From NCBI RefSeq assembly GCF_009931435.1, contig NZ_CP043414.1: a stretch of DNA of 64,000 nt; one strand, given 5' to 3'. Below, piece by piece: positions 1 through 3,000 of this stretch (positions within the stretch are counted from its first letter, which is position 1; each line of letters begins with the position of its first letter). Source of the DNA: Escherichia coli. Its GTDB lineage: Bacteria; Pseudomonadota; Gammaproteobacteria; Enterobacterales; Enterobacteriaceae. A program made the position numbers.

Positions 1-3000
1 AGAGTGCCTCAGCTGCGGCAGGCTTAAAAACAGCGGCTGCGTCGTCTGCCAGTGCAGCGTCAACAAGTGCCGGGCAGGCCTCAGCCAGTGCTAGCGCCGC
101 CGGAAAATCGGCAGAAAGCGCCGCATCGTCCGCTTCAACAGCCACAACGAAGGCTGGCGAAGCCACTGAACAGGCCAGCGCAGCAGCGAGGTCTGCTTCC
201 GCAGCGAAGACATCCGAGACGAACGCGAAAGCGTCGGAAACCAGCGCAGAATCCTCAAAAACGGCTGCCGCATCGTCCGCCAGTTCGGCGGCGTCATCGG
301 CATCATCTGCGTCTGCTTCAAAAGATGAGGCGACCAGACAGGCATCAGCAGCGAAAGGCAGCGCCACGACGGCATCCACGAAGGCGACAGAGGCAGCTGG
401 TAGTGCGACGGCGGCAGCACAGAGCAAAAGTACAGCAGAATCCGCGGCAACGCGCGCCGAGACAGCAGCAAAACGGGCAGAGGATATTGCATCCGCCGTG
501 GCGCTTGAGGATGCGAGCACGACGAAAAAGGGGATAGTACAGCTCAGCAGTGCGATCGACAGCACTTCCGAGTCACTGGCGGCAACGCCAAAAGCCGTTA
601 AGGCCGCGTATGACCTGGCTAACGGGAAATACACCGCACAGGATGCAACGACAGCACAGAAAGGGATAATCCAGCTAAGCAGCGCGACCAACAGCACGTC
701 TGAAACGCTGGCGGCAACGCCAAAGGCAGTAAAAGCAGCCAATGACAATGCTGAGAAACGTCTGCAGAAAGATCAGAACGGTGCGGATATCCCTGGCAAA
801 GACACCTTTACGAAAAATATTGGTGCCTGCCGTGCCTTCGGTGGGTCAGTAAGCACAACAACAGGAAACTGGACGACTGCACAGTTTATCGAGTGGCTGG
901 ATTCTCAGGGAGCATTTAACCATCCATACTGGATGTGCAAGGGTTCCTGGTCTTATGGCAATAATAAAATCATTACTGATACTGGCTGCGGTAATATTCA
1001 TCTCGCCGGAGCTGTCATTGAAGTAATGGGGATAAAGTCAGCGATGACGATCCGCATTACCACACCGACCACCTCCACTGGTGGTGGAACAACTAACGCC
1101 CAGTTTACCTATATTAATCACGGAACAGATTATTCACCTGGCTGGCGAAGGGACTATAACTCCAGAAATAAGCCAACGGCATCAGAGATCGGGGCGTTAC
1201 CGTCAGGTGGAACAGCAGTATCATCAGTTAATCTGTCTTCAAAAGGTCGGGTAACCGCGCTGACAGACAATACGCAGGGGGCAACAGGTCTTGAGTTATA
1301 CGAGGTGTATAACAACGGATATCCAACAGCGTATGGAAATATCATTCACCTGAAAGGGATGACAGCCGTTGGCGAAGGTGAGTTACTCATCGGCTGGAGT
1401 GGTACAAGCGGTGCTCATGCTCCGGCATTTATTCGTTCACGACGGGATACGACCGACGCAAACTGGTCGCCGTGGGCGCAGCTTTACACCTCGGCTCATC
1501 CTCCTGCAGAGTTTTATCCAGTCGGTGCACCAATCCCGTGGCCATCAGATACCGTTCCGTCTGGTTATGCCCTGATGCAGGGGCAGACTTTTGACAAATC
1601 TGCTTACCCGAAACTTGCAGCCGCTTATCCGTCAGGCGTGATCCCTGATATGCGTGGCTGGACGATTAAGGGCAAGCCCGCCAGTGATCGAGCCGTATTG
1701 TCTCAGGAACAGGACGGCATTAAATCACACACCCACAGCGCCAGCGTATCCAGTACGGATTTGGGGACGAAAACCACATCGTCGTTTGATTACGGCACTA
1801 AATCCACGAATAACACTGGTGCGCATACCCATAGTGTTAGCGGTACGGCTGCTTCAGCCGGTGCACATACCCATTCGATGACATTTGTTTCAGGTGGTTC
1901 CAGTGGTGCTCCGGGAAGTGGATCACCTGATTATTCTAAATACAGTGTTAACACTTCTTCTGCAGGCGCTCATACGCACTCTGTATCGGGTACTGCTGCA
2001 AGCGCAGGTGCACACGCACATACTGTCGGTATTGGTGCTCATACGCACTCCGTTGCGATTGGTTCACATGGACATACCATCACCGTTAACGCTGCTGGTA
2101 ACGCGGAAAACACCGTCAAAAACATCGCATTTAACTATATTGTGAGGCTTGCATAATGGCATTCAGAATGAGTGAACAACCACGGACCATAAAAATTTAT
2201 AATCTGCTGGCCGGAACTAATGAATTTATTGGTGAAGGTGACGCATATATTCCGCCTCATACAGGTCTGCCAGCAAACAGTACCGATATTGCACTGCCAG
2301 ATATTCCGGCAGGCTTCGTGGCTGTTTTCAACAGTGATGAGTCATCGTGGCATCTCGTTGAAGATCATCGGGGTAAAACGGTTTATGACGTGGCTTCCGG
2401 CGACGCGTTATTTATTTCTGAACTCGGTCCGTTACCGGAAAAGGTTACCTGGTTATCGCCGGGAGGGGAATATCAGAAGTGGAACGGCACAGCCTGGGTG
2501 AAGGATACGGAAGCAGAAAAACTGTTCCGGATCCGGGAGGCGGAAGAAACAAAAAACAGCCTGATGCAGGTAGCCAGTGAGCATATTGCGCCGCTTCAGG
2601 ATGCTGCAGATCTGGAAATTGCAACGGAGGAAGAAATCTCGTTGCTGGAAGCATGGAAAAAGTATCGGGTATTGCTGAACCGTGTTGATACGTCAACTGC
2701 ACAGGATATTGAATGGCCAGCACTGCCGTAGGGTAAAACATATAAATTCTATAATTAGATGTATCTTTCCATTTACGGCAAGGAAGGTGGCTTGGAAGAC
2801 GTAAAGCATCTCACACCGAGATTATTTTTTATATGTCAGGTGTCTGAAGTTTTGCTTTGGCTCTTAAAATGGTTTGCCGCGAGGTTTTGAATTCCCGGGC
2901 AATGGCACTTATACTTACACCTGACTTAATTCGTTCGAATACCACCTGTTTCTGTTCTTCATTTAACACAGGTGGTCGACCAAAACGTTTCCCTGCGCCC

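Follow-up and report, generated by a model that had tools for sequence, protein, structure and literature searches.

The window analyzed here is a 64,000-nt stretch of Escherichia coli DNA (assembly GCF_009931435.1, contig NZ_CP043414.1) that opens inside a phage tail fibre gene. The frame starting at nucleotide 3 has no stop between the window edge and a TAA at 2154-2156 and contains the C-terminal 717 codons plus the stop of an stfQ-type stf coding sequence (3..2156, + strand); the 5' 290 codons lie beyond the edge, and the window holds the distal 71% of the gene. The tfaQ gene follows directly and encodes a tail fibre assembly chaperone (2156..2731, + strand; Pfam Caudo_TAP, E 2e-42; 95% identity to lambda Tfa), its ATG overlapping the stf stop in the TAATG read in the sequence. 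Next lies pinQ (2829..3419, - strand), the gene for a serine invertase of the Pin/Gin/Cin family with Resolvase and HTH_7 domains, and the order stf-tfaQ-pinQ-ydfK-ynfT-ydfJ' is that of the right end of a Qin-type prophage. At a homologous locus with 99.4% DNA identity (NZ_CP062876), stf encodes 1007 aa and is situated between lom and tfaQ. The upstream order there, from the tape measure gene to J-lom-stf-tfaQ, comprises a whole tail module in lambda order.

The gene had been called a tail fibre in an earlier note on this DNA, and that identification was borne out by its domains, gene order, and lambda relatives. Pfam assigned Phage_fiber_2 (twice), Collar (PF07484), and Phage_fiber (PF03335) to the part of stf in the window, and phage_tail_N (the StfN collar, PF08400, E 3e-71) was found in the full-length 99.4%-identical homologue, within the region that lies outside the window here; an NCBIfam scan of the same full-length homologue matched no family. 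When compared to Ur-lambda Stf (orf-401 plus orf-314) and Tfa, the N-terminal part was 83% identical to orf-401, the C-terminal 214 aa were 67% identical to orf-314 (E 9e-106) with the last 31 aa identical, and the cognate chaperone was the 95%-identical Tfa mentioned above. The position is likewise that of a lambda-type Stf, with stf-tfa in the window and the complete J-lom-stf-tfa order in the homologous locus. The stf frame gave pN/pS values of 0.13-0.24 against three homologues, indicating purifying selection, and near-identical fibres are annotated in the genome records of the phages PhiR29_2, PhiR68_2, and the lambdoid-like SPF_0923. We conclude with high confidence that stf encodes the lambda-type side tail fibre of a Qin-like lambdoid prophage in ydfJ and that this fibre has a gp37-like tip. 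The feature is already known: it is an ordinary lambda-type side tail fibre gene of a well-known family.

The first 170 residues in the window (3..512, + strand) form an Ala/Ser/Thr-rich shaft with 38% Ala, 24% Ser, and 11% Thr (73% in total). The earlier note had described this shaft as low-complexity sequence; the compositional bias is real, but the region is not mere bias, being built on a strict heptad repeat. Spectral peaks were found at periods of 3.5 and 7, which 0 of 500 shuffles reached, and the identity autocorrelation was 0.36-0.42 at lags of 7, 14, 21, and 28, compared to about 0.13-0.25 elsewhere. The shaft consists of the last 24 of about 50 heptads of the form xAxxSAx, and spacings of the DNA repeats within it are mostly multiples of 21 nt. 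In the 1007-aa homologue, the long rod of a lambda-type Stf is present as a sequence periodicity of 50 unbroken, in-register heptads, with Ala in column 2 of 46/50, Ser in column 5 of 36/50, and Ala in column 6 of 34/50. For Ur-lambda gpStf, a proximal coiled coil has been described at residues 102-393 (PMC12617516). The shaft is thus an ordered heptad-repeat region that matches the proximal trimeric coiled coil of Ur-lambda Stf and is predicted to be helical and trimeric as well. As a separate observation, low-complexity masking by BLAST drops the shaft from tblastn matches.

Downstream of the shaft are two tandem Phage_fiber_2 repeats (508..771, + strand; PF03406, E 4e-37, two stretches), which at the DNA level contain a 107-nt direct repeat with 75% identity and copies 132 nt apart, and which align with Mu S (PDB 5YVQ and 8JU3). 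They are followed by a Cys-containing domain, module A (aa 249-405; 747..1217, + strand), that matched residues 178-334 of 8JU3 by phmmer with an E value of 1.9e-69 and is common to the Mu S', P7 Sv, P2-type H, and SSU5 fibres (tblastn matches in P7, SfMu, fiAA91-ss, and SSU5). Module B (aa 406-503; 1218..1511, + strand) is a beta-rich knob of about 85 aa with the motif YNNGYPxxYGN...GWSG...RSxRD...WSxWA. Its alignment across five phage fibres has 35 invariant columns, and an AlphaFold2 (AF2) model was all beta with a pLDDT of 66.6. The best Foldseek matches of this model in the PDB, to the R1 pyocin fibre (6CL5, E 0.23) and T4 gp34 (4UXG, E 0.43), were non-significant and are at most suggestive of a fibre knob. 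The alignment of the middle region is distorted by a permuted order of the modules, and it was left out of the modelling. The notion that the modules represent tandem receptor-binding tips was considered and set aside, as the matching modules in P7 Sv occupy codons 58-362 of 522 and are not the extreme tip there.

The last 214 residues (aa 504-717) aligned with the structure of the T4 gp37 tip (2XGF, chain residues 28-242) with a phmmer E value of 2.3e-86 and 149/214 identical positions (70%). The alignment begins with a tail-collar domain (aa 504-575; 1512..1727, + strand; PF07484, E 4e-12), which equates to the N-terminal part of gp37 D10, a domain made up of residues 811-881 and 1010-1026 (PMC6957217). 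An outward strand of the needle stem (1728..1874, + strand) carries HxH motifs 1-3 (H576/578, H608/610, and H622/624, corresponding to gp37 H883/885, H915/917, and H929/931), and a return strand (1971..2075, + strand) carries motifs 4-7 (H657/659, H671/673, H680/682, and H689/691, corresponding to gp37 H966/968, H980/982, H989/991, and H998/1000). The C-terminal segment leading back to the collar (2076..2153, + strand) lies within the last 31 residues, which are identical in lambda orf-314, and its columns are nearly invariant among phage homologues. The earlier note had placed at least seven G(A/S)H(T/A)H(S/T) repeats in the C-terminal 120 aa. Seven HxH motifs are indeed present (nt 1728-2075), but they span 120 aa ending 26 aa before the C terminus, placing them in the last 144 aa, and only five of the seven conform to the strict pattern, the other two being KSHTHS and GSHGHT. 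This number is far from random; in 20000 protein shuffles, the mean was 0.53, the maximum was 5, and none reached 7. The Pfam family Phage_fiber (PF03335), a 14-aa HxH repeat, scored 22.6 bits versus a cut-off of 20, with its best stretch at aa 603-616.

Modelled by AF2 as a monomer from a 13-sequence alignment, the tip (aa 503-717) yielded a pLDDT of 55 and a pTM of 0.24, too poor for a fold search. Because this model was unusable, the tip was judged by its homology to 2XGF. Low confidence of a monomer model is expected for an intertwined trimer. All 14 of the motif histidines align one to one with histidines of gp37, the needle of which contains seven His-coordinated iron atoms, with H929 and H931 named explicitly as ligands (PMC6957217). 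The proposal that the repeats belong to a metal-coordinating trimeric fold is consequently upheld by homology, and in the comparison with the lambda Stf and T4 gp37 tips the repeats align well beyond their low complexity. By correspondence with gp37, the tip is predicted to bind metal and to trimerize.

Between the two stem strands lies a hypervariable loop of 32 residues (aa 625-656; 1875..1970, + strand). It shares 6/31 positions with lambda and 7/25 with T4 (19-28% identity), compared to 77-90% for the flanking stem, and among 13 phage homologues its length ranges from 7 to 53 aa while the stem is conserved. In T4, tip residues 933-953 determine binding to LPS and OmpC (PMC6957217). The loop is probably the head that contacts the receptor; because its identity to both lambda and T4 is below 30%, binding to OmpC is not to be assumed. 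Of 5426 complete E. coli genomes, 622 (about 11%) carry this variant of the tip, and the tip module was detected in 696 phage records, including those of T4-like, P2-like, Felix O1-like, and lambdoid phages.

The presence of pinQ and the similarity to Mu S' and P7 Sv prompted a search for an invertible segment. Of the properties shared by the known invertible cassettes (Mu G, P1/P7 C, and e14 P), the adjacent invertase gene is present here, and neither a pair of crossover sites nor a second gene set was found. Inverted repeats at positions 7400-13200 of the homologous locus (L001) were no better than chance, the crossover-site core AAACCNNGGTTT did not occur within one mismatch in window positions 1-15000, and a site like e14 pix did not occur within three mismatches in the entire window. 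A second, oppositely oriented Sv'/U' set is absent from the interval between the tfaQ and pinQ stops, which measures only 97 bp. The Mu gix site encodes IQNLGLQE; a retained equivalent at FTKNIGAC was examined by eye and rejected, with only coding-level similarity in its left half. Inversions are reported only in e14 (PMC12529663).

These features allow the gene to be set beside the known fibres. Ur-lambda Stf is composed of a collar, a linker, a proximal coiled coil, a hinge, and an OmpC-binding distal domain of gp37 type (PMC12617516), and the Stf described here agrees with it in the overall succession of collar, coiled coil, hinge, and gp37-like distal domain, as well as in the J-lom-stf-tfa order. 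The two differ in several respects: the 1007-aa homologue has a longer heptad rod, two Phage_fiber_2 repeats are found versus one in lambda, modules A and B (aa 249-503) are inserted only here, seven HxH motifs are present compared to eight in lambda (the extra lambda motif being in the return strand), and the tip loop is unrelated, so that the receptor may differ from OmpC. Ur-lambda Stf has about 774 aa. With the T4 gp37 tip (2XGF, D10-D11) the protein shares the collar, seven HxH motifs at the same positions, the C-terminal 15-residue stretch, and the out-and-back topology that is implied by three plus four motifs around a variable loop. In contrast, gp37 belongs to the long fibre of a myovirus rather than to the side fibre of a siphovirus, it is followed by gp38 (a 183-aa ORF, named in PMC6957217) at the position taken here by a lambda-type Tfa, and its tip loop has 34 aa versus 32. 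The Mu S', P7 Sv, and P2-type H fibres (8JU3 and 5YVQ) are 70-85% identical over the Phage_fiber_2 repeat and module A, module B and its P7 Sv counterpart share 65% identity, and a Pin/Gin/Cin-family invertase gene adjoins the Mu S' and P7 (P1-type) fibre genes too. P7 Sv has the modules in the opposite order, with B upstream of A; moreover, in the present protein modules A and B are internal rather than at the fibre end, and the invertible segment, crossover sites, and alternative Sv'/U' set of the Mu and P7 cassettes are lacking. The 215-aa gp37/orf-314-like stretch was defined as the unit of a "T4- and lambda-based RBP family" by Magaziner and Salmond 2022 (PMC9659904). We see no difference of substance from that family or PF03335, and the stf gene here is another tip-loop allele.

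On the observed homology, motif correspondence, heptad register, purifying selection, and gene order we base a model in which the trimer, metal, coiled-coil geometry, and receptor are predicted. Three Stf chains would make up one fibre, and the N-terminal collar domain, which lies outside the window, would dock onto the tail tip. The approximately 50 Ala/Ser heptads would produce a long rod with the structure of a parallel three-stranded coiled coil, and the two Phage_fiber_2 repeats together with the two beta-rich modules of Mu/P1/P2 type would supply the hinge and the beginning of the distal half. The C-terminal 214 aa would adopt the gp37 tip fold, a collar continued by a six-stranded needle to which each chain contributes one outgoing and one returning strand. 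The needle would have seven levels, and at every one of them six histidines from three chains would coordinate one axial metal ion, which is iron in gp37. Where the chain turns, the 32-aa loop would be the hypervariable head touching the receptor, and Tfa, encoded downstream with overlapping stop and start codons, would chaperone trimerization of the tip. Such a fibre would let the phage adsorb quickly and reversibly to LPS or an outer-membrane porin, ahead of the binding of the J fibre to a receptor of its own.

Two other readings of the sequence itself were weighed. One takes the Ala/Ser region and the His repeats for intrinsically disordered, biased sequence with neither an ordered fold nor a metal site, as might be surmised from the low-confidence AF2 monomer of the tip and the BLAST masking of the shaft. 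That reading is refuted because the tip aligns with 2XGF: over 214 aa, 70% of its residues are identical to those of a crystal structure, and all the motif histidines are retained. In addition, the shaft keeps a strict heptad register, and an intertwined trimer is expected to model poorly as a monomer; we give disorder next to no chance. The other concerns long ORFs in additional frames of the shaft region, an Arg/Gln/Pro-rich one of 161 aa at 52..537 (+ strand), an antisense one of 133 aa at 91..492 (- strand), and a fully open antisense frame (lambda orf206b), any of which could be a real overlapping gene. Lambda has the annotated antisense orf206b within orf-401, and when codons were shuffled only 1.3% reached the 169 open codons of the +1 frame (p 0.013, uncorrected) and 2.2% the 148 of the 91..492 frame (p 0.022, uncorrected), but this excess is non-significant after correction for five frames. 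Moreover, pN/pS was 1.8-8.2 for 52..537 and 1.3-2.7 for 91..492, versus 0.13-0.24 in the stf frame, and substitutions relative to the three homologues fell on stf third codon positions in 13/17, 18/24, and 29/46 instances. The low pN/pS of the third antisense frame is uninformative because its wobble positions are shared with stf. The products would be Arg/Gln/Pro low-complexity strings, the shaft has 0.6 stops per 100 codons versus 5.0 in the rest of stf, and 148 codons or more are open simultaneously in 3 of the 5 other frames, as GCN/AGC/ACN-rich codons predict (second-position GC 0.78). An overlapping gene is very improbable, and the earlier note was right to regard 52..537 as a by-product of composition.

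A different question is what the protein does in this strain. The stfQ gene of E. coli K-12 is truncated. Since the Qin prophage is cryptic in K-12, this strain may never incorporate the Stf fibre into a virion. The gene could then be kept, in a prophage that builds no virions, for the benefit of the host, for example as free fibre that masks a receptor from superinfecting phages. The Qin-type site at ydfJ with pinQ adjoining fits this idea, purifying selection on stf is compatible with any protein-level function, and PinQ works in trans, inverting the e14 P segment to give a chimeric StfE2 that blocks T2 adsorption (PMC12529663). That paper does not mention stfQ or tfaQ, however, the 99.4%-identical locus keeps the entire tail module in lambda order from tape measure to tfa, and near-identical fibres occur in the phage records PhiR29_2, PhiR68_2, and SPF_0923. 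We consider retention for host benefit improbable. The broader proposition, of either a functional fibre with a receptor specificity unlike the OmpC binding of lambda and T4 or a receptor-masking defence protein where the prophage is cryptic, is doubtful but somewhat less so. A different specificity may follow from the combination of a lambda-type rod, modules A and B in a non-P7 order, and a gp37 needle with an unusually Gly/Ser-rich 32-aa head. Either version, if true, would add a novel allele or a novel use to a fibre family already described and would not be a new kind of system.

The lambda-type side tail fibre gene described here is textbook tail-fibre mosaicism, with lambda, Mu/P1/P2, and T4 modules in one gene, and it illustrates how an ordered coiled coil can underlie sequence of the "Ala/Ser low-complexity" kind. 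Annotators would do well to name the gene as a side tail fibre that has a gp37-type (predicted) iron-binding tip and to leave long alternative-frame ORFs inside stf, such as lambda orf206b, without gene calls. Host-range differences among the ∼11% of complete E. coli genomes with this allele are best sought in the loop at nt 1875-1970.

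The side tail fibre gene (stf, stfQ-type) spans positions 3..2156 (+), where its frame runs without a stop from the window edge to the TAA at 2154-2156 and encodes 717 aa. The ORF entry 498..2156 represents only the portion downstream of the first in-frame GTG and is incomplete, because the real gene extends past the 5' end of the window. The homologue in NZ_CP062876, annotated 'phage tail protein', is full length at 1007 aa. Pfam searches of the window protein returned two Phage_fiber_2 matches (E 4e-37), a tail Collar domain (PF07484) at aa 508-555 (E 4e-12), and, scoring 22.6 bits (cut-off 20), Phage_fiber (PF03335), whose 14 residues make up the HxH repeat described below. 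An N-terminal phage_tail_N domain was additionally present in the full-length homologue. On comparison with the PDB, aa 504-717 matched the T4 gp37 receptor-binding tip as solved by crystallography (2XGF, E 2.3e-86); the match to aa 249-405 was the Mu S' fibre, 8JU3 (E 1.9e-69). In lambda, orf-401 was 83% identical to the N-terminal portion of the 1007-aa homologue, orf-314 was 67% identical to the last 214 aa, and Tfa was 95% identical to the product of the gene downstream of stf.

Seven HxH motifs were located in the gp37-like tip, at aa 576/578, 608/610, 622/624, 657/659, 671/673, 680/682, and 689/691 (nt 1728-2075), whereas shuffled versions of the protein (n = 20000) had a mean of 0.53 and never more than five. 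The earlier note had described an Ala/Ser-rich shaft and G(A/S)H(T/A)H(S/T) repeats; the composition and the seven motifs were present, its positions were slightly in error, and five of the seven motifs matched its pattern strictly, the variants being KSHTHS and GSHGHT. In a three-way alignment with T4 and lambda, all 14 motif histidines faced gp37 H883/885, 915/917, 929/931, 966/968, 980/982, 989/991, and 998/1000, with lambda carrying one motif more than the window protein. The gp37 needle holds seven such irons along its length, and its iron-binding histidines, with H929 and H931 in the residue list, are not replaceable by Ala (Islam et al., PMC6957217). Homology to the solved structure 2XGF supports the proposed trimeric fold with coordinated metal, and we infer that the window protein would likewise bind metal and form trimers. 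Three motifs precede and four follow a 32-aa segment (aa 625-656), which is the sole strongly divergent part (6 of 31 residues identical to lambda and 7 of 25 to T4), the flanking stem being 77-90% identical. Across 13 phage homologues, the segment ranged from 7 to 53 aa, and the stem and a C-terminal stretch of 15 residues were nearly invariant. Such a conserved stem with a variable segment is the pattern that would be expected of the gp37 architecture, in which each chain extends to a head that binds the receptor and then returns.

Over its first 170 aa, the window protein consists largely of Ala (38%), Ser (24%), and Thr (11%). In the full-length homologue, residues 105-454 keep a single register through 50 heptads, the last 24 of which lie inside the window, with Ala in column 2 of 46, Ser in column 5 of 36, and Ala in column 6 of 34. 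Fourier peaks at periods of 3.5 and 7 were equalled in none of 500 shuffles, identity autocorrelation was 0.36-0.42 at lags 7, 14, 21, and 28 versus about 0.13-0.25 at other lags, and the DNA repeats of the shaft were spaced mostly by multiples of 21 nt. Ur-lambda gpStf comprises a collar (1-91), a linker, a proximal coiled coil (102-393), a hinge, and a distal domain that is a structural homologue of gp37 and binds OmpC (Yu et al., PMC12617516). Its proximal coiled coil is the same element as the shaft, which is somewhat longer in the window protein. Three of the five other frames were open simultaneously over the shaft, for 148-178 codons, and GC at the second codon position was 0.78. Substitutions relative to three homologues fell mainly at stf third positions, and pN/pS was 0.13-0.24 in the stf frame, 1.8-8.2 in that of ORF 52..537, and 1.3-2.7 in that of ORF 91..492; the remaining open antisense frame has its wobble positions in common with stf, so pN/pS is uninformative there. 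The ORFs in alternative frames are by-products, as had been claimed for 52..537. Lambda orf206b (1648..2268, - strand, of the lambda sequence) is an annotated antisense ORF within the orf-401 stretch of Ala/Ser heptads. It uses the antisense frame that has its wobble positions in common with stf, a frame that is fully open in the window too; its annotation is probably a compositional artefact of the same sort.

Lambda Stf lacks a counterpart of aa 249-503, which comprise module A (aa 249-405, nt 747..1217) and module B (aa 406-503, nt 1218..1511). Module A shared 70-85% identity with segments of the Mu S', SfMu, P7 Sv, and P2-type H fibres; module B is a conserved element, roughly 85 aa long, seen also in P7 Sv and in the fibres of SSU5, SW3, and Vibrio phages. 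Its AF2 model was all-beta at moderate confidence, and the top PDB matches to that model were other fibre knobs, not significant. P7 Sv (2501..3412 of the P7 locus) has B before A, the reverse of the order in the window (747..1511), and in phage SW3 module B directly follows a Phage_fiber_2 repeat without module A. The middle region reflects the ordinary shuffling of fibre segments as modules. Short NIGA and EIGA repeats flank module A in the window protein and look like recombination linkers.

Because the fibre resembles Mu S' and P7 Sv and has the Pin/Gin-family serine invertase gene pinQ (2829..3419, -) as a neighbour, an invertible cassette was considered. No crossover-site core (one mismatch allowed) was found in window positions 1-15000, no e14 pix-like site (three mismatches allowed) anywhere in the window, and no meaningful inverted repeat in the corresponding NZ_CP062876 locus; there was no alternative fibre cassette in cis either, the gap between tfaQ and pinQ being only 97 bp. 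The trans target of PinQ is the e14 P segment, whose inversion blocks T2 adsorption, and inversions were observed in e14 only (Kirigo et al., PMC12529663). We conclude that the window fibre gene is not phase-variable. In NZ_CP062876, the tape measure and tail tip genes, J, and lom are followed by the stf homologue, tfaQ, pinQ (opposite strand), ydfK, ynfT, and a 5'-truncated ydfJ, and the order from stf to ydfJ' is the same in the window. The locus is the right-hand end of a lambdoid prophage of the Qin type, integrated in ydfJ. This MHS-family MFS transporter gene (4755..6038, +) is without its N-terminus; ydfK and ynfT lie within 3420..4754, between pinQ and the prophage-chromosome junction, which must fall between ynfT (about 4038-4151) and 4755. 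At 2154..2158, the stf stop overlaps the tfaQ start in TAATG. Lambda orf-314 and tfa overlap in the same way, coordinate 21973 being common to both genes, an arrangement that would fit coupled translation of the fibre and its chaperone.

Window positions 1-4700 were matched over at least 80% of their length by 753 complete E. coli genomes (top identity 99.4%); of 5426 complete E. coli genomes, 622 carried the tip-loop DNA (nt 1840-1990) at an identity of at least 95%. The 215-aa tip module was found in 696 phage records, among lambdoid, T4-like, P2-like, and Felix O1-like phages, and has been described as a T4- and lambda-based RBP family (Magaziner and Salmond, PMC9659904). In Salmonella phage SPF_0923, a near-identical stf-tfa pair (6474..9674 of that locus) is directly followed by the manganese/iron transporter genes sitABCD, which suggests that the deposited 'phage genome' is a stretch of prophage carrying cargo or adjoining host DNA. 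The feature is already known: the protein family has a curated Pfam repeat, a homologous structure has been solved, and the architecture of the lambda orthologue is published. There is nothing unusual about it.
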